From Octopus vulgaris (Eukaryota), in the NCBI GenBank assembly GCA_951406725.2, contig OX597819.1:25668001-25732000 (forward strand): a stretch of DNA of 64,000 nt, read 5' to 3'. Both the position numbers and the translations under genes were made by a program. The notes under the pieces were generated by a model, which did not search any database, had not been told where the DNA came from, and was given only the letters and a program-made list of their open reading frames with translations. Shown piece by piece: positions 16,760-59,997 of the stretch. Each line of letters starts with the position of its first letter. Within the stretch, counting starts at the first letter, position 1.

Positions 16760-16943
16760 TAGGCGCAGGTGTGGCTGTTTGGTAAGTAGTTTGCTTACCA
16801 ACCACATGGTCCTGGATTCAGTGCCACTGCGTGGCACCTTCGGCAAGTGTCTTCTACTACAGCCTCGAGCCGACCAAAGCCTTGTGAGTGGATTTGGTAG
16901 ACGGAAACTGGAAGAATCCCGTCGTATATGTATATATATATAG

Positions 16944-17203: not shown

Positions 17204-17210
17204 TATAAAT

Positions 17211-17446
17211 AGAGTGGTTGTATACAGTCAACATAACGTGACAGTCCCGTAAGGGAATTACACCACCGCAGTTTAGCCCTAGGAAGCATCAAGCTTCCTG
17301 TCGGCTTTGACACATTTCCTGTGTCCTTATATTTGCGAAGGGAGGGGGCGGAAGCACCCCCACGAGCTAGGATTCACATCTCAGGACATGCATATTTCTG
17401 GGTCTTAACCCGTCATCAGCCCAGGATAGTGAGATCTACTGATTGA
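17211..17446 (-). mobile_element. PLE-like pseudo-LTR remnant (host of ORF1-only element 1; continues at 19079-19125 and 19219-19498)
   Basis: AGAGTGGTTGTATAC.GTCAACAT.ACGTGA recurs at 19219-19241 plus 19490-19497; TATATTTGCGAAGG (17328) is inverted at 19112; carries a hammerhead motif. Confidence 0.6.
17374..17432 (-). ncRNA. Type I hammerhead ribozyme motif (imperfect stems)
   Basis: TCACTATCCTGGG-CTGATGA-C-GGGT-TAAG-ACCC-A-GAAA-TATGCATG-TC-CTGAGATGTGA. Confidence 0.6.
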
Positions 17447-19078
17447 AATCTTTATTATAGGCACAACGGCCCGAATGAAGAGGCGACATAACAATACAAC
17501 ACACGACATGGGGTACATATAACAAAAATACAGAAAGGATGATATGAAATGAAATATTAATAATGAATTAAATGAAATGGCTTACGAGCCCCCCAAAGCT
17601 CGCAGTTTCATTTACAATTACAATTGTACTATCTGGGGTGTTCGTCAGTAATGTAAGCGAGTAATTCATCCTGTTCTATAACGCCGGGCAAACTGTCTTA
17701 TCGAACGTAGTGCGCTATGCACACAGCTATATTTGAAAACAAATTTATTAATATATTTACCGTCTCTTTATCCACAATTGCAGCCTTTATTTGGTTATCC
17801 TATATCCTCGGGTTCAATTTCACTCTCGTTAGATTTTTTCATTATCGCTAATTTTTTCTCAATTTTTTATCCTTTTTGTACAACATTACAGCTTTGAGAT
17901 TTTTTCCTTTCGGTCTTCCTCCTTCCTTGCATCTTTTCTAACATTCTTCCACTCTTGTTGACCATTTATTCGTTTCCTCCCACGTTGGACCTTCACTCAC
18001 TTTCGTTGCTGGATCTCTCCCTTCGTGCGTTCGATTCTCTGTCTCGTCGGCAGACTTCTGTTTAGGTCTTTTTCTTTTTTGGTCTTTGCGTGGTGATTCC
18101 AGCCGTGTTTGCTTTCTATCCTCTTTTTCTTCTGTTCTTTCCTTTTCTTTCTCCTTCACCAAACCGTCACCACTTTCCACATTATCTGTTGTCACGATTT
18201 CCTCTTCCGCGTGCAATTCCACATTCTCCTTTTCTAACTCCTCTGTCAAAGTCTCCATTCCTTCCTCCAGTGTTATCGTCTTCTCTTGTATTTCTCTTTG
18301 AGGACACACATCCTTCATGTGCCCTCTGCTCCTACATTTATAACACGCAGTAGGTCTCCACTGCACCACGACTCTCAGTCGTGTCTCATCGGGGAACACC
18401 AACTCCTCCGGGATGTTATACAAATCTGGCATGGTTATGTGGACCGAAACTTGCACCGCATAACCCCACCAGTTTATTTCTTTCGACATTTCCACCTTAA
18501 GAATGTCCACGCTCTCTTTACGGTCGTAGATTATTGCAGCTACTATTGTTTCGGTATCAAGTTCCGGTGAGATTTTGCTTATTCGTATCCTCACTGCTCT
18601 TTTTCTACAATAACTAGGAAGTAAAACTCATTTTCCGATTTTAACACTGTCGTTGCGTTTCTCTTCGCTTCATCTTCATTTTCAAAACGAATGTCTACCC
18701 TAGCGTATTTTCTACCTCTATTGTAGTAGGTAGTTCTTCCCTTAATTTCCTGTAGACATTTCTCAATCTCTTCCACCTCTGCTACTTCTTTTCTCTTTGA
18801 GACCACATTCCAAGTTCTGTATGTTATGACCTTTTTCTCTGCTTCTTTCACTTCGTCTTCAGGTGGTGTAACCCTCAGGCAGTCACCTTCCTTCTTGAAG
18901 CTGTCGTAGTATTTCCTCAAATTTTCCTTCTCGAGCCTGCTGCTCCCGCATAAGTTTGGGCTTGCATACCCAACAAAAAATCCAACAATTCAACACGACG
19001 CAACAGTTCCAACAACAGAAATCAACAAAATCCAACTCACAACCGCAATACAAAATAACCGACACGAACACTTCCAAG
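17447..19078 (-). mobile_element. ORF1-only non-autonomous non-LTR retroelement 1 (L1/Tx1-like ORF1)
   Basis: Flanking repeat TAGTGAGATCTACTGATTGA (17427-17446) / TAGCGAGATCTGCTTATTGA (19079-19098), 17 of 20 identical; AATAAA at the 3' end; single decayed ORF; no RT. Confidence 0.75.
17629..18967 (-). pseudogene. Frameshifted ORF1/gag-like protein with CCHC zinc knuckle
   Basis: MQAQTYAGAA...CLRVTPP...YARVDIRFENEDEAK...LLPSYCRKRAVRIRI...RPTACYKCRSRGHMKDVCP, then a charged linker, ending ...GVIEQDELLAYITDEHPR*. Confidence 0.8.
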
Positions 19079-19241
19079 TAGCGAGATCTGCTTATTGAGA
19101 TGCCTGTCTAGCCTTCGCAAATATATATATTTACAGTGAAATCTATTCACTGGTTACCGTAATTAGAAATATTAAATTTCGAAATGTCTCAAAGAGACAT
19201 GAGCAATGGTGGAGCGATAGAGTGGTTGTATACTGTCAACA

Positions 19242-19471
19242 GGCGGCGACCTGGCAGAAACGTTAGCACGCCGGGCGAAATGCTTAGCGGTATTTCGTCT
19301 GCGTTACGTTGTGAGTTCAAATTCCGCCGAGGTCGACTTTGCCTTTCATCCTTTCGGGGTCGATAAATTAAGTACCAGTTAGGCACTGGGGTCGATGTAA
19401 TCGACTTAATACCTATGTCCGTCCTTGTTTGTCCCCTCTTTGTTTAGCCCCTTGTGGGTAATAAAGAAATA
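19242..19471 (+). mobile_element. SINE family C, full length, 18-bp TSD
   Basis: TSD GGTTGTATACTGTCAACA immediately either side (19224-19241, 19472-19489). Confidence 0.92.
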
Positions 19472-19786
19472 GGTTGTATACTGTCAACATGACGTGAATC
19501 AATTTCCACTGTACCTTTATGCTGCAATCTTTAATTTCGGTATCATTTCACATGCAACATCTTAGTTATGGTTCACATAAAACCTTTTAAAAACTTCCAG
19601 TTTGGAGGAATTAATATCTACAGAATATCTTATATCACACCTCGTCCTTATACTTAATGGAAGATCACTCGAACTTTTCACACCATGAAATCCTCGAACC
19701 AAGTTAATTCTTGTCCTTTCATTTTCCTTTCCACTTCGAGTTTTTGCATGGATTCTTTTTGGGATGCTAAACAGAATATATATATA

Positions 19787-19972: not shown

Positions 19973-20173
19973 GTAGGTCCCGGGTTGATTCGGGGTTAAC
20001 CACAGTAAATAAGGTACTCAATACATAGCAGAGTAAAATTAATTTATTATATAGAAGGAGCTTCTACAGGACTAGAACTGTTTCATTCAAGCGAAATCAT
20101 CAGTGAGCTTCCTGATGATTTCTCTTGAATGAAACAGTTCTAGTCCTGTAGAAGCTCCTTCTATATAATAAAT
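19973..20173. mobile_element. PLE pseudo-LTR remnant forming a ~62-bp-arm inverted repeat
   Basis: 20042-20103 is inverted at 20112-20173; flanked by (TA)n. Confidence 0.8.
20105..20157 (+). ncRNA. Type I hammerhead ribozyme motif
   Basis: GAGCTTC-CTGATGA-TTTCTCTTGAAT-GAAA-CAG(TTCTAGTC)CTG-TA-GAAGCTC: perfect 7-bp stem I. Confidence 0.8.
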
Positions 20174-23944: not shown

Positions 23945-24345
23945 TCTATTCTTTTACTTGTTTCAGTCATTTGACTGTGGCCATGTTGGAGCACTGTTTG
24001 TAATCGAAAAAATTGACCCCAAGGACTTATTGTTTGTAAACATAGTACTTGTTCTATCGGTCTCTTTCGGAACTGCTAAGTTACATAGACGTAAACACAC
24101 CAGCATCAGTTGTCAAGCGACGGTGAAGGGAGAAACACACACACACAAACATGCATACACAAACACACACACACATCCATACACACACACACGACGAGTT
24201 TCTTTCAGTTTCTGTCAACAAAATTCACTCACAAGACCTTGGTCGGCCCGTGGCTATGGTAGAAGACACTCGCCCGAGTCTCCATGTAGTGAAACTCAAC
24301 CTAGAACGATGTGGCTGGGAAGCAAGCTTCTTACCACACAGCCTG
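23945..24345 (-). mobile_element. SINE family A
   Basis: Homology to other family A copies. Confidence 0.88.
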
Positions 24346-24961: not shown

Positions 24962-25596
24962 GTTCTTTTCTACTCTAGGTACAAGGCCCGAAAATTTGGG
25001 GGAGAGTGCCAGTCGATTAGGTCGATCCTAGTACAGACAAACGGATTAAGTCGATTATATCGACCCCAATGCGTTACTGGTACTTTTTTAATCAACCCTG
25101 AATGGATGAAAGGCAAAGTTGACCTCGGCGGAATTTGAACTCAGAACGTAGAGGCAAACGAAATACCTATTTCTATTTCTTTATTACCCACATGGGGCTA
25201 AACATAGAGGAGACAAACAAGGACAGACAAACGGATTAAGTCGATTACATCGACCCCAGTGCTTAACTGGTACTTAATTTAACGACCCCGAAAGGATAAA
25301 ATGCAAAGTCTACCTCGGCGGAATTTGAACTCAGAACGTAGAGGCAAACGAAATACCTATTTCTATTTCTTTATTACCCAAAAGGGTCTAAACACAGAGA
25401 GGATAAACAAGGACAGACAAACGGATTAAGTCGATTATATCTACCCCAGTGCGTAACTGGTACTTAGTTTATCGCCCCCCAAAGGATGAAATGCAAAGTC
25501 GACCTCGACGGAATTTGAACTCAGAACGTAGCGGCAGACGAAATAGTGCTAAGCTTTTCGCCCGGCGTGCTAACGTATCTGCCAGCTCGCCGCCTT
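24962..25596 (-). mobile_element. Tandem family C SINE array (190-bp period)
   Basis: ACAGACAAACGGATTAAGTCGATT at 25033, 25223 and 25413; only one complete head, at ~25545-25596. Confidence 0.9.
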
Positions 25597-42733: not shown

Positions 42734-44914
42734 TATATATATACACACACACAAAGGAAAGCTTTAGGAACATTTCATGATAGAGCTACAATATTTTATA
42801 CTAAGATTTTTTTAAAATCAATAATTAATATTATAGTTGTAAAAAATCATTTAAAATGAGGACATTAACACACACCTACTGGGAAGAACTTCTTGTGTAA
42901 GCGCTTTCCACTGTTTCCAGTTGTTCAAGCCCATATCATATATCACACACACACACGCACAAACACGCACATGTATATATGTATGTATTTGTGTGTGTGT
43001 ATGTGTGTGTGTGTGTAATTCACTTTTTCTTTAAGGTAGGAACAACATACAAATTATAGCATTCTGTGAGTGATAAATATCATTTAATGTACACTATTAA
43101 AATACAAGCAACTAATATTTTTTTGCCATAGAGAATTATATAACGTACTTTATGTTTGGAAGCAATATTCAAATTTTGGTCCATGGTTTGTTTTATTCGA
43201 AAATAGGACGCTGGTACATGAAAAATCACAAATAAAAATGAAGAATGTTGATACAAAAATTGAAATGAGAAGAGAAAAGGTGAATATAAACAGAAAAGGA
43301 AAGTAACGAAAAAGAAGAAAGTTAGAATTAAACCGTCTTCGACCAGCAGTTGTACAAAGTCTGTAATATGGTTGCTCAATCCGGAGGGGCGGTGTCCAGC
43401 AGTTTGATAAAAGAAATTTGTCCATATGCTATATGTTACTTTAGTAAAGGTGAAAAATCTTAGCACACTGTTACTCAGATTTGTGATTATCCCGAATATA
43501 TGGTCAACAATCACATGAAACTCTGAGCAACAGTTCGTGAAGGTCTTTTTAAAGCTTTAATAAAAAAATTTATTACTCTGCTGTTGATATTCGAGTACAG
43601 TTTTTTACCACCTACCTTGGACCTATGCGCTTCCTTGTGTGTATATGTGTTTGTGTGCGTGCATATATATTATACGTGAATATATATATATATGTGTACG
43701 TGTGTGTGCGTGAGTGTGCGTGTATGTGTGTGCGCGTGTGTGTGCATGTGTGTGCGAGTGTGTGTACATGTGTGTGCGTGTGTGTGTGTGTGCCTATAAT
43801 CACACACATAGAAAGAAAGAGAGAATAATATAAATATATATGAGACACACATACATACATATACATATCGAACACGCAGCAATTCTAACAAACATAAAAA
43901 ATATGAAAATTGTAAAAATTATTCCTCTCAGTAAATTAATATTTTCATACTCAGACATGTCCATGACACAGAAATATGTCAATGTTTGTGATATTGATTT
44001 AAAGGTAGATAAAAGATTCGAGTAAACTTTACATAAATCAGTGCAGGTAAAGTTTGTCATTGCATTAAAGCATAACATCACATAATTTAAGTTGAGTGAC
44101 ATTCACAGAAATCATTTTGTAAGAAGGATTTGTAAAATCCAGTTTGACAGGTCTGCTTAACTCATTCTAAGTGGGTTTAGGAAAATGAAAATAGTTCATA
44201 ATCTTTGTTTTACTTCTTGACAATTTTTAATCATCGTCTCTTTCCGGATTCAAAAATACCTATCTCTGAATATCTACCCTTTCTTTACTATTCCATCATC
44301 CATTTCCGCTGTTTTGTTTCCCTCATTCTCCAGCCATTCTCTGCCTTTTTATAACCCGTAAGAACTTGATGCTTGACGTTTCCAATAAATGCGATAGATT
44401 CATTGAAAGAAAAAAAAATTAAGCATACCGCTATATTTACAGATGAAGTATACGGAGTCCATGCAGTGTTGCTAGTATCTCAAAGACCAAACTAAAGAGG
44501 AGTCGAGCTATTATATACTATTGACTTAGTGCCCAAGCATTTAACACAAAACAGAATAAATAATAAAAAAAAATGACAGGAGATGCAGATGAGGGCAGCT
44601 GCATCGAACGCTCTCATGCACCAAATTGCAATTGCTAAAAAGTGCTCGTGAAGTAAAATCATATAGCAACACCAAATGGTGGTGCTCCAGCATGGCCACA
44701 GCTTGTGAGCTGAAATTAGATAAATGAAAAAATAAAAATATCACATACATAAAAAAGGAAGGATTCATTGAACAAGGTATTTAAACACACACACGCACAC
44801 ACACATAATTGAAAAACAAGAGGACAGTGGAAATTTATTCACATCCAAAACTTTTTTATTAAAAAGATTTCTATATAGGCGCAGGAGTGGCTGTGTGGTA
44901 AGTAGCTTGCTTAC

Positions 44915-46930
44915 CCAGAATGCAACACTAGTTGGTCTGGACTGTTACAGTGAGCAGATGTGAGTTTCGGCTCCGCGAATAGAAAAAAAGAACAAAAAGA
45001 AAAATTGTCAATTATAGCTCGCTATAGCGAGCAAAATACTGGGTTCTCATCATCGCAACGGTGAATTGAGAATTTTTTTGAAAGTTCTTGTGAATTCTAG
45101 TGGACGTATCTTGCCAGAAAAATAAGAATAAGCCATTTGGATTACCTTTTTGGAGTATTATACAAAGGATTCCCTGTCTGTGCTATTTGTAAGGTTTTTC
45201 TTTTGCTTTTCCCTTCTTCTATTTTTTCTTTCTTTCTAAATTTTGGTTCATTCTTTTTATTACTTTAATTTCAGTTTCCTCCCCTCCTCTTTTATTTATT
45301 TTTTTTTTATTCGGTTTAATTTTTTGGCAGACTGTCTTTTTAACTACTTTTGAACTGTTTTTTGACATGGCAGAGAAGGAACTTAAAAAGAAAAAACTCT
45401 GTCTTAGAGTGGGAAATTAACCCGCCTAAGCAGTGGTTAGAAGATATGGAGGAGAAGACGATGGTACTTAGAACGTATTCTAAAGTTCTTATTTCCATCA
45501 CCGTCTTCCAAAAACAAGTCATAAAAAATGAACTTAAAGAACATTTGTCCTCTGTAAAATATATATCCGTGGTGTCAAACATGCAACCGTATGGTTGCTG
45601 TTTGACAACGGGGAAAAGGCTCGCCAGTTTGCGAGTCAGCCTTTAAAAGGCAAGGAAATTTTGCTTCTCCCGTCATATTGTGGAAGAAAATTAATACGAG
45701 CCTGGGTATGTGGGCTTCCCCGGGCACCGAAGCGGATTGGATTGAAGATACCATCCGACGGGGACTGGGGGATGGTGGGCCCAGGCTCTTAAATGTAAGA
45801 GTATTGCCGGCGGTCGATTGGGAAGGGTCAAAATCGCTTTTGACCCTGTGGACCCCATCGGCCATAACAGATCTGGTTTTTCCAGATTTCTTGAAAATGG
45901 CTGGCTGCAGGTATCCGGTGATACTTGAGGGACGTCCCCCAAAGTGTCACACGTGCCTGCAGCCAGGCCACAGTAAAATAACTGCCCCGAGGACCATGGT
46001 AAGGTCCTGGAACAGTCACTAAATGCCACCTCCCCTACTCGGTCAAAGGGAGAGTTGGATGTGGTCTAGAGAGGCTTCAGCCTCCTCAACTCAAAAAGGA
46101 TTAAAAAGGAAGAAGGCGGGCAACAACAGGCTTCGGAAGGCGGGGGAGAGTCTCCGGACAAAGCGGAAGAGCTCCACTCTCCCGAAGCCAGGAAAAAAAA
46201 AAGAAGGAAGAAGAACGGGTCATCTCAGCGGGGAGATGATGTGCCGACTGCATGTCCCGAAGTTGTTCCACCCACGGTGGAGGAAACCACCCCACCCTTA
46301 CAGATGATCAATTAATTATCTTTTTCGACAAGGGCGGGGAGGTGGAAAAATAGTAGAAGAACATAAAGAAACAGTAGATATGCCCTTCACACGGGATCCC
46401 GAATGGCCTCCGCAGATAGCTGTGGAGGTCATAAGGTTTCCCTTGTGGGAAAGGCTTAAAGGATTTGGGGAGGAGTGTCGCATATGGCCGTGTGGCCGTT
46501 ACACGACTTACATGTCCTACATGAGTGAGGCATGGGAAATGGCGGGATACAGGAACTCAAGCGGCATTGAAGATAATGATGAATATATCGATGGATATAT
46601 CGAAGAGTAGGAGGTGAAAGACCCTCGTTACTGGGTTTGAAACCTCATCTTATTGGATTATTTTGTAGTGGTTTATAACCTCAATTTTGTGCTTTAAGAA
46701 AGAAAAAAGAAAACATGTTAAGTAAGAGGTTTTAGTGCCTCCTCCTTGTAAGAGGTTTGAAACCTCATATTGATTTAAAAAAAAAAGAAAATATGTTTTC
46801 GAGAAAAATCCAATCGGCGGGTGTTGGGTTTCGTCTCTCATTTATTCACTATATTTCATTTTCATTCATTAATGTGTTTGTCCAGCCCGCAAAGCTCTTT
46901 GTACTGTCTATATGACAAATTTATGAAATA
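44915..46930 (+). mobile_element. ORF1-only non-autonomous non-LTR retroelement 2
   Basis: Perfect 15-bp TSD AAGTAGCTTGCTTAC (44900-44914, 46931-46945); AATAAA at the 3' junction; one decayed ORF; no RT. Confidence 0.88.
45367..46639 (+). pseudogene. Frameshifted ORF1/gag-like protein with CCHC-type knuckle
   Basis: MAEKELKKKKLCLRV..PPKQWLEDMEEKTMVLRTYS...FDNGEKARQFASQPLKGKEILLLPSYCGRKLIRAWV...LEGRPPKCHTCLQPGHSK...GIEDNDEYIDGYIEE*EVKDPRY. Confidence 0.8.
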
Positions 46931-47707
46931 AAGTAGCTTGCTTACTAACCACATGGTTCCGGGTCCAATCCCACTGCATGGCACCTTGAGCAAATGTCTT
47001 CTATTATAGCCTCGTGAGTGGATTTGGTAGACGGAAACTGAAAGAAGCCGTCGTGTGTGTGCGCGCGTGTGTGTATGTGTGTATATGTTTGTGTGTCTGT
47101 GTTTGTCCACCCAACATCACTTGACAACCGATGCTGGTGTGTTTACGTCCCCGTAACTTAGCAGTTCGGCAAAATAGACCGATAGAATAAGTACTAGGCT
47201 TACAAAGAAGAAGGCTTGGGATCGAATTGCTCGACTAAAGGCGGTGATCCAGCATGGCCTCGGTCAACTGACTGAAAGAAGTAAGAAAGTAGAAGAGTAT
47301 ATATATATAACAATGAGCAACATATTTTTCTGCCGCGGCACATGTTTCTGCACATTGCTCTGTAAGCAATTATGCATTCTGGTCACTGCAGTTTCATTAA
47401 GGGTCCCTCGCGATATTTTCAAAATGAAAAACAAGCTTCCTGCGTTGGTATTCAGTAGAGGATGATAGCGTTTCTTTTTAAACCGAATTTAATTTTGGTC
47501 TTACAATCACCTCTACTAGTATTACAGTTGAATCGTGGTCTTAGAATGTTTATTTATATTAAAATTAATTGTAGCAGTGTTGTTCACGTTTTACTGTATG
47601 GAGTATATTATTTATTCAGAGGTATTTCACTTAATTTGGGTGTATATCCTTAATTAATATTATTGTTATTATTATTATAATTATATTTATTAGTATTATA
47701 TGCTAGA

Positions 47708-47894: not shown

Positions 47895-48492
47895 TTGAAC
47901 CAGAGATAAAGTAACAATCCATGAAGTAGAAACAACCCTCCTCACCTGCTTCGATATAGGCCAAGGTGCTTTCATCTGCAGGGACGATATTGGTCTCAGT
48001 ATTTGCGGATGCAAAAGGCATTGTATTTATTGACTATCTTCAAAAGAAACTCACCGTCAATACAGAGTACCATACCAACTTACGAAAGGCTATCGTGATC
48101 AAAGCCCAGGAAAACTGACGAATGGAGTCTTGTTTCATCAGCACAAAAGTCCTTCGTTTCAATTGCTGTTGTGTATTACTGTGGCTTTGAACGGGTTGAA
48201 CACGTCCCTTTTCTGATTTCGCCCCATCTGACTATCATCTATTCCCCAGCATGAAAAATTGCACTTGGCCTTGGCTGAAAAGCAGTGTCGCAGAGATGAT
48301 AGCATCATATCTACTGATGATAACTTTTTTGACCAACTCGATTAAATCCTCTTCACCAATGAAATCCAAGGACTGCAACAGCGATGGAAGACGTGAGTGG
48401 TCAGTAGGAAGACAATGTTGAAAAATAAACCTTATTTAGTCACATTCCATGAGAGTATCTGGTCGGCCTTTGGACTTTTCAGCCGACCTTAG
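47895..48492 (+). mobile_element. Decayed mariner 3' half
   Basis: KVLSSAGTILVSVFADAKGIVFIDYLQK and DFAPSDYHLFP motifs; TIR-like end. Confidence 0.85.
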
Positions 48493-56199: not shown

Positions 56200-56618
56200 A
56201 GGCGCAGGAGTAGCTGTGTGGTAAGTAGCTTGCTTACCAACCACATGGTTCCGGGTTCAGTTCCACTGCGTGGCATCTTGGGCAAGTGTCTTCTGCTATA
56301 GCCCCGGGCCGACCAATGCCTTGTGAGTGGATTTGGTAGACGTAAACTGAAAGAAGCCTGTCGTATATATGTATGTATATTTATATATGTATGTGTGTGT
56401 GTGTGTTTGTGTGTCTGTGTTTGTCCCCCACCAAAATCGCTTGACAACCGATGCTGGTGTGTTTACGTCCCCGTCACTTAGCGGTTGGGCAAAATAGACC
56501 GATAGAATAAGTACTAGGCTTACAAAGAATAAGTCCCGGGGTCGATTTGCTCTACTAAAGGCGGTGCTCCAGCATGGCCGCAGTCAAATGACTGAAACAA
56601 GTAAAAGAGTAAAAGAGT
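56200..56618 (+). mobile_element. SINE family A (young, full length)
   Basis: GGCGCAGGAGTAGCTGTGTGGTAAG...GGTTCAGTTCC...GTAAAAGAGTAAAAGAG. Confidence 0.93.
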
Positions 56619-56623
56619 ATATA

Positions 56624-57599
56624 CGAGAGGAAGTCAAAAATTATCCGCAGCTTCACCATATCATATCTTTATTATTGTCACACTGCCTTCTGCGCACGCG
56701 TGCTTATAGTTAAGTCTATGGTGGACACGTGATCGAAGTTTGAGCCTGATCGCAGTATTTTTCTTTCTGGCTTTACAGTGCAATCATGGCCGCACCATTA
56801 GCAATGTGTGCCACAGAAGAACAAAGAGGACTGATCCAATTCCTCTGGTCGGAATGTAAGTTCGGTTCCCATAATGGGGGGGGGGGGGGGCAAGTCGGCT
56901 TACTGTAGAGCACAAGCGCAAATGTCTTGCGGTCTGCTAACGTTCACTCGATCGCTACAACAATGAGGGCGAGGAGGTTTTGAGCAGAATTGTCACAGGA
57001 GATGAAACTTGGGTCCATCATTACGAGGCTGAATCCAAAAGACAGAGTATGGAATGGAAACATTCTTGCTAGGCAGCGACGAAGAAATTCAAGAATCAGT
57101 CTCCCACTGGAAAAGGTGATGCTAACCCATCCAATTGGGGGACTCAAAAGGGCCTATACTGGAAGACAACCTGGAAACGGGGTGTACGATCAACAGTGCA
57201 AGACAGTGCTTTTCTGGTCAACAAACTGAAGTCACCAATTCGCACCAACGCCGAAGGGTATTGTCGAAGAAAGGTTTGATGTTGCACAAAAACGCACGCC
57301 CCATACGGCCGCCCAGACCACTGAAACCATTTAGCAATTGTGCTAAAAGGCTGCGCTGAATGTCAGCACTTTCCGACCAGAGAAATCGGATCACTGCTCT
57401 TTGTTCTTCTTTGGTGCATATTACTAGTAGAGCGGCCGTGCTTACACTGTCAAGCCAGAGAGAAAAGCGGCGCGATCAGGCTCGAACTTTGACCACCTGA
57501 CCACAATAGTACCAGCTATAAGCACGCATGCGCAGAAGGCAGTGTGTTGATAATGATTATATGTTATGTCGAAAGCGGATAATTTTTGACTTCCCTTGG
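56624..57599 (+). mobile_element. Non-autonomous mariner derivative with ~230-bp inverted arms, copy 1
   Basis: TA|CGAGAGGAAGTCAAAAATTATCCGC...GCGGATAATTTTTGACTTCCCTTGG|TA; internal IVTGDETWVHHY remnant. Confidence 0.9.
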
Positions 57600-57613
57600 T
57601 ATACATACATACC

Positions 57614-57645
<32 letters not shown>

Positions 57646-58183: not shown

Positions 58184-58965
58184 CGAGGGGCGTTCAATAA
58201 GTAATGCCTCTGACCCACTTGCAGTTGTTTGATCTAGTTGAAATTTTTGACTGTGCAATTATTTATATCTCTATAGATTAAGTGGCAAATTACGGCTCTG
58301 AACTAGTTGTGGTTTCTGATTTACAGGTGTTTGAACTGAGTCAAGTGTGAAATGGAGCCTGTTGAGTGTCTAGCAGTGATGCGGTTTTTTGTATTTGAAA
58401 GGTCGCACACCACGGGAGACTTTTGATGAAATAAAAGTAATTCATGTTGATGATGCCCCATCATATGACCTTGTAAAACGCTGGCATCGTGAATTCAAAC
58501 ATGGTCGGAACTTTGTGGAAACAGCTCCCAGATCTGGTCGCCCCCTTCTGCCATTGATGAGGCATCTGTCCGTCAAGTTGAGGCTGCCATTTTGGAAGAT
58601 CGACGCATAACTATTCGCCAAATAGCCCATGAGGTCAAGATTAGTACCGGATCTGTGGAAACTATCATTCATGACCATTTGCATATGCAAAAGGTGTCTG
58701 CCAGATGGATTCCCAGGCTGCTCACACCTTTCCAGAAGCAAGAACGCGTCGATTACGCGAGGATGAATTTGAAGATGTGCCAAGAAGATGAGTCAAAATT
58801 TTTCAAAAGACTGATTACACAGGATGAAACCTAGGTCCATCACTATGATCCAGAGACCAAAACCCAGGCAATGCAGTGGAAGCACCGTGACTCACCTCCT
58901 CCAAAGACGGCATGGGTGTAGCCCTCCGCTGGCAAGGTCATGCTCACATTCTTCTGGGACCAGGA
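58184..58965 (+). mobile_element. Mariner element 5' half (transposase pseudogene, ATG at 58352)
   Basis: TA|CGAGGGGCGTTCAATAAGT TIR; ...PRSGRP...WIPRLL...ITQDET*VHHYDPETK...GKVMLTFFWDQD with frameshifts. Confidence 0.92.
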
Positions 58966-59931
58966 CGAGAGGAAGTCAAAAATTATCCGCAGCTTCACCA
59001 TATCATATCTTTATTATTGTCACACTGCCTTCTGCGCACGCGTGCTTATAGTTAAGTCTATGGTGGACACGTGATCGAAGTTTGAGCCTGATCGCAGCAT
59101 TTTTCTTTCTGGCTTTACAGTGCAATCATGGCCGCACCATTAGCAATGTGTACCACAGAAGAACAAAGAGGACTGATCCAATTCCTCTGGTCGGAATGTA
59201 AGTTCGGCTCCCATAAGTGGGGGGGCCAAGTCGGCTTACTGTAGAGCACAAGCGCAAATGTCTTGCGGTTTGCTAACGTTCACTCGATCGCTACAACAAT
59301 GAGGGCGAGGAGGTTTTGAGCAGAATTGTCACAGGAGATGAAACTTGGGTCCATCATTACGAGGCTGAATCCAAAAGACAGAGTATGGAATGGAAACATT
59401 CTTGCTAGGCAGCGACGAAGAAATTCAAGACTCAGTCTTCCACTGGAAAAGGTGATGCTAACCCATTTTGGGGGACTCAAAAGGGCCTATACTGGAAGAC
59501 AACCTGGAAACGGGGTGTACGATCAACAGTGCAAGACAGTGCTTTTCTGGTCAACAAACTGAAGCTACCAATTCGCACCAACGGCGAAGAGTATTGTCAA
59601 AGAAAGGTTTGATGTTGCACAAAAATGCACGCCCATACGGCCGCCCAGACCACTGAAACCATTTAGCAATTGTGCTAAAAGGCTGCGCTGAATGTCAGCA
59701 CTTTCCGACCAGAGAAATCGGATCACTGCTCTTTGTTCTTCTTTGGCGCACTTTACTAGTAGAGCGGCCATGCTTACACTGTCAAGCCAGAGAGAAAAGC
59801 GGCGTGATCAGGCTCGAACTTTGACCACCTGACCCCAATAGTACCAGCTAAAAGCACGCATGCGCAGAAGGCAGTGTGTTGATAATGATTATATGTTATG
59901 TCGAAAGCGGATAATTTTTGACTTCCCTTGG
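58966..59931 (+). mobile_element. Non-autonomous mariner derivative, copy 2
   Basis: Near-identical to 56624-57599. Confidence 0.9.
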
Positions 59932-59941
59932 TATACATACA

Positions 59942-59997
<56 letters not shown>

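Follow-up and report, generated by a model that had tools for sequence, protein, structure and literature searches.

A decayed ORF1-only retroelement inside a tRNA-type SINE of Octopus vulgaris belongs to a multi-copy family that probably moves with borrowed machinery

How does a retroelement spread if it encodes an RNA-binding protein and no enzyme to copy itself? The question is raised by a stretch of 64,000 nucleotides from Octopus vulgaris (assembly GCA_951406725.2, contig OX597819.1, positions 25,668,001 to 25,732,000 of the forward strand; hereafter the window), in which a short interspersed nuclear element (SINE) is split by an insert with one decayed open reading frame (ORF). A first-pass annotation, made from the sequence alone, took the insert for a non-autonomous relative of long interspersed nuclear elements (LINEs) that keeps the RNA-binding ORF1, borrows ORF2 in trans and possibly targets the SINE. 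The analysis presented here leads to a similar view, which we hold to be probable though well short of certain: the insert is a broken copy of a multi-copy ORF1-only family that recurs at one site in the SINE head and was likely moved by target-primed reverse transcription with the ORF2 of an autonomous partner LINE, for which the L1/Tx1 group is the probable source.

The limits of the insert are sharp. It occupies 44915-46930 on the plus strand (2016 bp) and is flanked by an exact 15-bp target-site duplication (TSD), AAGTAGCTTGCTTAC, identical at 44900-44914 and 46931-46945. The host is a tRNA-type SINE of about 430 bp, interrupted between motifs that are A-box-like and B-box-like; ARAGORN found no tRNA genes. 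When the flanks are aligned to intact SINE copies, which are continuous across the site, the left flank falls on their heads and the right flank on their bodies, and the remainder of the host SINE (46946-47303) is 88-90% identical to the copy at 56223. Twelve of the 14 rows at this site in the window are uninterrupted, and the other two are the halves of the present copy. The size of the insert, its perfect duplication, its position between the two boxes of a SINE (family A) and the AATAAA at its junction (46927-46932) had all been described in the first-pass annotation and are borne out. The AATAAA shares two bases with the TSD and runs into it, and poly(A), which is found at the 3' end of L1 elements, is absent from the 3' joint. 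A search for repeats resembling long terminal repeats (LTRs) at the insert ends found none, the TSD being the sole exact terminal repeat, so the annotated lack of LTRs and of poly(A) stands as well. LTR retrotransposons have long terminal repeats and make a short duplication of 4-6 bp, and a gag-only member of that class was rejected on the strength of the missing LTRs and the TSD as only exact terminal repeat. A Penelope-like element or retrozyme was also rejected, since 44915-46930 holds no hammerhead core and no Rfam match; the Rfam scan, which covered the insert and a second element described below, gave nothing at gathering score. BLASTN within the 64-kb window found no second copy of the insert.

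The duplicated 15-mer is native to the SINE, with nine matches at two or fewer mismatches in the window against 0.20 expected, and the target site lies within an inverted repeat, TGGTAAG-N7-CTTACCA, that has seven matches against 0.02 expected. The real TSD may measure 11-15 bp, because its last four bases also match a longer 5' form of the element. The SINE heads of the window carry two variants of the target site, with the inverted repeat nearly perfect in one and broken in the other; the heads at 16784, 41283, 52115 and 56223 form one group and those at 24332, 26035, 42302, 50740 and 55748 the other, and the interrupted SINE carries the nearly perfect variant. OR1 is a published octopus CORE-SINE (PMC4824008; papers are cited here by PMC number).

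Public sequencing runs place this copy within a family. Part of the insert is contained in 20 of the 24 listed runs, which come from 10 studies with four organism labels. Contigs from four runs (X1, X2, X3 and X14) were aligned to 44886-46960 in 30 bins; of 1225 loose ends and 100 joints among them, 24 and 15, respectively, are listed, and the junction results below are subject to this limit. The insert is covered in 30 of 30 bins in each of the four runs. In X1 and X2 the median of its summed depth exceeds that of single long contigs about 500-fold, a ratio that is not a true copy number. Depth at the 3' end is 3-5 times that at the 5' end, and the deepest bin, 46356-46425 in all four runs, falls within the C-terminal coding part, suggesting that additional subfamilies retain it. 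The end of ORF1 is linked to the 3' untranslated region (UTR) by contigs that show 25-41 differences, namely records 31 and 32 of X3 and record 7 of X1. Since ORF1 in these diverged copies is followed at once by the shared 3' UTR, the ORF1-only layout is a trait of the family, and the presence of many copies together with diverged contigs that have no ORF2 before the 3' UTR supports a multi-copy ORF1-only family, as first proposed, rather than a one-off. Two outcomes that had been named beforehand as telling against a family, a single copy and other copies continuing into ORF2, did not appear.

It is very improbable that these copies are instead dead-end products of an autonomous LINE whose RNA was polyadenylated after ORF1, such that the apparent 3' UTR is the spacer between the ORFs and the short form does not constitute a separate lineage. 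The AATAAA at the end of the insert would suit such products, and so might the occurrence of the C-terminal part in subfamilies of higher abundance. Against this, no loose end among those listed runs past the 3' end into coding DNA, diverged copies stop at the same base, and the layout recurs in a second family in the window, whose protein identity is about 25-30% and whose 3' UTR shows weak similarity.

The copy in the window is itself broken. Its frame opens at the ATG at 45367 and closes at the stop at 46608-46610, and the annotated 5' UTR of about 450 bp and decayed frame of about 420 codons were confirmed at 452 bp and about 414 codons. Five of the six frame breaks coincide with single-base differences that are present in all four runs, and since these five all lie in single-base runs, decay and assembly error are indistinguishable there. 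The in-frame stop is a minority letter among the run contigs, indicating that other copies are open at this point. The zinc knuckle had been read as CX2CX4H; it is present, but that pattern was incomplete, and the full CX2CX4HX4C is recovered across a frame break. Likewise, the TTCAT motif is found in the 3' UTR, although calling the region rich in it was generous, as its three occurrences all fall in one 15-bp patch.

What the intact protein would have looked like can be judged from its relatives. The closest is P0001 from Octopus sinensis (71% identity), found from one piece of the frame and aligning across three frames of the insert. It was the sole match in word-indexed protein searches, while a full scan gave 47 representative relatives at E<=0.001; of 20 that were looked up, 11 carry octopod names (O. 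sinensis, O. bimaculoides, O. vulgaris or Argonauta) and nine carry no organism. The structure predicted for P0001 from 28 sequences has a pLDDT (predicted local distance difference test) of 80.5 and two domains resembling the RNA recognition motif (RRM). A Foldseek search with this model returned 141 PDB matches at E<=0.001, headed by tandem-RRM proteins, and each RRM half compares with known RRMs at Z of about 8-9, with a root-mean-square deviation of 2-3 over 68-82 residues. The zf-CCHC family matches 17 of the 28 family members at E<=5, and P0001 itself is without the first Cys of the knuckle. Transposase_22, the family of mammalian L1 ORF1p, is absent among the Pfam matches listed. By way of this 71% relative, the predicted folds support an RNA-binding protein of the LINE ORF1 type. 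RRM plus CCHC defines the type I ORF1p, which occurs in Tx1 among others (PMC5203782); the combination is present here and is not unique to Tx1. A C-terminal likeness to the relatives was dropped, as a profile built from the C-terminal segment of six of them failed on the C-terminal frame in the window.

The same relatives bear on the idea that the copies are processed pseudogenes of a domesticated host RNA-binding gene similar to ZCCHC3, to which we give hardly any credence. Relatives are indeed annotated as host genes, and ZCCHC3-type clusters are among the look-alikes found by a language model (likeness 0.87-0.90). This is opposed by the absence of poly(A), by the very many diverged copies and dozens of paralogs at 22-36% identity, and by the knuckle Cys missing from the closest relative, which is not what a conserved source gene would be expected to show. 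A literature search for a link between ZCCHC3 and Tx1 found no paper with both terms, and PMC9004415, in the part available, has no bearing on it. It is likely that many octopus gene models named as uncharacterized CCHC proteins are copies of such elements. One further O. sinensis gene model, P0015, joins the first 45 residues of the ORF1 family to an integrase domain and is likely a second copy fused by gene prediction. Four related ORF1 proteins, P0005 and P0048-P0050, come from Logan contigs whose length, 1849-1930 bases, matches that of a complete ORF1-only element.

The enzymes are missing, as had been stated. A Pfam scan found no match to a reverse transcriptase (RT) or endonuclease; it covered 150 of the 188 stop-free pieces that passed filtering in the window, among them every one of the 89 near the insert and the second element. 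The O. vulgaris genome holds 80 L1-Tx1 families, 13 of them recently active (PMC13282606), and the autonomous partner is probably of this L1/Tx1 group.

Evidence on the choice of site comes from the junctions. Contigs with diverged 3' ends align onto the 3' junction in X1 (13), X2 (26) and X14 (2), and record 8 of X1 spans it with 32 differences in 207 bases. At the 5' junction, other copies carry about 10 additional bases: in four X2 contigs this longer 5' end is attached to a SINE head whose upstream flank differs, and record 9 of X14 joins the SINE to it with, by the offsets, the same 10 bases. X1 and X2 also contain one contig apiece that passes from the SINE at 44909 straight to 45581 in the element, the arrangement expected of a 5'-truncated copy. 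The finding of different element ends joined to one SINE site favours targeted insertion, and the earlier suggestion of SINE targeting holds to the extent that joins to the same site are repeated among the contigs listed.

An alternative possibility, which we regard as unlikely, is that an untargeted ORF1-only family struck a common SINE by chance, aided by pairing between its AATAAAG end and the AAGTAG of the SINE. SINEs make up 11.6% of the O. vulgaris genome (PMC13282606), the second family lies in a different host sequence, and with 24 of 1225 loose ends listed the share of copies at the SINE site may lie on either side of the 20% of flanks above which target preference has been defined (PMC4494074). 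Yet in three of the four runs, and in diverged subfamilies, the joins listed coincide to within a few bases along the 430-bp SINE, and no pile of unrelated flanks is seen behind 46930 among the rows listed.

It is also improbable that a composite of SINE and ORF1 arose from one early insertion and was amplified as a unit, its flanks being inherited by hitchhiking. Such a history predicts shared 5' and 3' junctions, and the 10 bases missing here sit between two TTAC copies and could have been deleted by slippage at a later time; the inner duplication of the second element (83%) has also decayed further than an outer repeat (96% over 25 bp), although the numbers are small. The 5'-truncated copy in X1 and X2 nevertheless joins the SINE inside the duplication, the same test that rejected hitchhiking for the passenger SINEU-3, and the upstream SINE flank varies among copies. 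Moreover, the 2 kb between the boxes are too long for RNA polymerase III, which terminates at T-runs and would end its transcript at the one at 45073-45079, while a transcript from the element's own promoter would omit the upstream half of the SINE.

Several results weigh against the reading of a targeted family that borrows ORF2. Random-flank copies may be many, given how few of the loose ends and joints are listed, and the 5'-truncated junction may be one locus common to two species. A search for fused ORF1-ORF2 proteins of 1403-4005 residues scored none among 4999 candidates, though the search was weak, and two metagenome scans for the partner gave 201 and 422 pattern matches with no locus confirmed. 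The likeness to ZCCHC3-type clusters comes from the language model only, with no Pfam match to ZCCHC3-type RRM families, and a terminal hairpin in the 3' UTR is weak (z -1.77; 10 of 200 shuffles as good).

If targeted insertion with borrowed ORF2 is nonetheless the right account, the steps might run as follows. Transcription by RNA polymerase II would start in the 5' UTR, and the ORF1 protein would coat its own RNA. The endonuclease of the partner LINE, having a preference for this site, would nick the bottom strand at CTT/ACC, at the left edge of the TSD inside the inverted repeat. Cleavage of the RNA 10-30 bases past AATAAA would leave target sequence at its end, able to pair with the nicked DNA and to prime reverse transcription in trans by the partner's ORF2 protein. 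The AATAAA at the junction means that the RNA would end in target sequence, and this would account both for the precision of the 3' joint and for its lack of poly(A). The duplication would arise from a nick in the top strand at a distance of 11-15 bases; a stagger of 13 bp, allowed by the longer 5' form, would place both nicks at CTT/ACC. A model for the absent poly(A) is offered by R1Bm and SART1Bm, in which an RNA 3' end matching the target improves accurate priming (PMC7265360); these are autonomous R1-clade elements tested in the laboratory, whereas for the octopus element we infer the step.

The second, distant ORF1-only element lies on the minus strand of the window. P0001 matches it at 18298-18872 (E 3e-11; profile E 2e-39 and 4e-30), and its protein is about 25-30% identical to P0001. 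It has one ORF1 with one frame break, a TTCAT patch, an AATAAAG end and no ORF2, and it is flanked by a 23-bp imperfect duplication (83% identity). The 3' UTRs of the two elements are weakly similar (5 of 300 shuffles as good; 20 of 300 for the last 300 bases), and their 5' ends are unlike (102 of 300). The presence of two such distant families within 64 kb suggests that the layout is common in octopus. In the host of the second element (17205-17449 and 19079-19249, about 300 bp), the two halves form inverted repeats with each other, a type I hammerhead-like core with no Rfam match lies at 17419-17385 on the minus strand, and direct repeats of 25-37 bp are found outside; this host is possibly a retrozyme or a repeat derived from Penelope. 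The upstream direct-repeat copy is itself interrupted by a SINE of another family, the second in the window (19245-19497), which has its own duplication of about 18-21 bp.

A bolder and rather doubtful extension is that octopods possess an old and diverse 'half-Tx1' group with a working two-RRM ORF1 and no ORF2, each family being specialised on a hairpin in a different small repeat and its targeting reinforced by target sequence at the RNA 3' end. If so, the head of a tRNA-type SINE, whose promoter is thereby split, would be the target here and a hammerhead-bearing repeat that of the second family, and the elements would parasitise other parasites, silencing each SINE copy in which they land.

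The first-pass annotation saw in the retention of ORF1 a surprising reversal of the usual LINE pattern. This was overstated, as ORF1-only derivatives (HAL1, HeT-A) and a passenger aimed by Tx1 (SINEU-3) are already published. HAL1 is a non-autonomous derivative of mammalian L1, of several origins, that is restricted to ORF1p (PMC5753468; PMC4161310), and in this the two are alike. The mammalian L1 ORF1p consists of a coiled coil, one RRM and a C-terminal domain (PMC5203782), whereas the octopus protein is predicted to combine two RRMs with a knuckle, and the element ends without poly(A) and seems to favour one site. Both an L1-type ORF1p and a 3' poly(A), by which HAL1 is strictly defined, are lacking here, while an ORF1-type protein, the absence of ORF2 from more than one copy, multiple copies and a TSD without LTRs are all found; the element works like HAL1 or HeT-A, yet it is not HAL1 in the strict sense. 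HeT-A of Drosophila telomeres likewise has a gag-like ORF and no pol, uses the RT of another element and is targeted (PMC5537684). It adds to chromosome ends, probably without a nick, and has a long 3' UTR, oligo(A) and a host function; the octopus element, in contrast, inserts internally with a duplication.

Insertion at a fixed site in another repeat is typical of the Tx1 clade (Tx1L in Tx1D, Tx1-Mar, Keno, Kibi, Koshi), and SINEU-3 is a non-autonomous passenger that shares a Tx1 target, for which truncated copies rejected hitchhiking (PMC4494074). The octopus element resembles both in its apparently fixed site in another repeat, and Tx1 in its RRM and CCHC ORF1; unlike it, SINEU-3 encodes no protein. 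Targets named in the available sections for Tx1 elements are DNA transposons, LTR elements, small nuclear RNA and 5S genes, satellites and microsatellites, with no SINE head among them (PMC4494074). The target here is a SINE head; the element has no RT, and its ORF1 type would be compatible with Tx1 membership. The available sections of PMC8967140, PMC9115989, PMC4824008 and PMC9004415 and of one preprint mention no octopus ORF1-only or SINE-targeted element, and the accessible part of the supplement of PMC13282606 has no HAL1, ORF1 or non-autonomous entry. No paper on such an octopus element was found in a search that left subscription journals, Repbase, Dfam and the Zenodo O. vulgaris library outside, and the family may already be catalogued in Repbase, Dfam or the Zenodo library under a plain label. 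If the reading is true, ORF1-only LINE derivatives extend to cephalopods with a different ORF1 type, and Tx1-like machinery gains the SINE head as a further target. Such a passenger, with ORF1 retained, ORF2 dropped, a fixed target and natural copies in the hundreds, would also allow one to ask why ORF1 is kept in cis and what sets the target: ORF1, the endonuclease or RNA-DNA pairing. Repeat classifiers based on RT would miss ORF1-only elements.

Table 1. Coordinates in the window of the insert, its host SINE and the second ORF1-only element.
Feature	Position	Strand	Remarks
Host SINE head, 5' part	44872..44899	+	A-box-like TGGCTGTGTGG at 44888-44898
Left TSD copy	44900..44914	+	within SINE-head inverted repeat TGGTAAG-N7-CTTACCA
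5' UTR	44915..45366	+	452 bp; T-runs from 45073 onward
Broken ORF1	45367..46610	+	about 414 codons, six frame breaks, one in-frame stop
Predicted RRM 1	45419..45684	+	mapped from relative P0001, residues ~14-102
Predicted RRM 2	45685..45935	+	mapped from P0001, residues ~103-185
CCHC zinc knuckle	45945..45985	+	final Cys beyond a frame break
C-terminal coding part	46356..46565	+	at least 80% shared with further subfamilies; no known family
3' UTR	46611..46930	+	320 bp; short GTTTGAAACCTCAT repeats, TTCAT patch 46855-46869, AATAAA 46927-46932
Right TSD copy	46931..46945	+	exact match to left copy
Host SINE remainder (body, tail)	46946..47303	+	B-box-like at 46962-46972
Second, distant ORF1-only element	17450..19078	-	1629 bp; TSD-like repeats 17427-17449, 19079-19101

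Elsewhere in the window, a mariner-type transposase fragment lies at 47960-48115 (PF01359, E 4.5e-07). A 1023-bp element with terminal inverted repeats of about 230 bp occurs twice at 96% identity (56623-57645 and 58965-59977), and a piece of a Tc1/mariner transposase (58493-58834) is located between the two copies. In a tandem array at 25033-25591, a 190-bp unit derived from the second SINE family is present in 2.7 copies, and at 20040-20140 a long inverted repeat is made up of a pair of almost identical CTGATGA...GAAACAGTT motifs, one on each strand.

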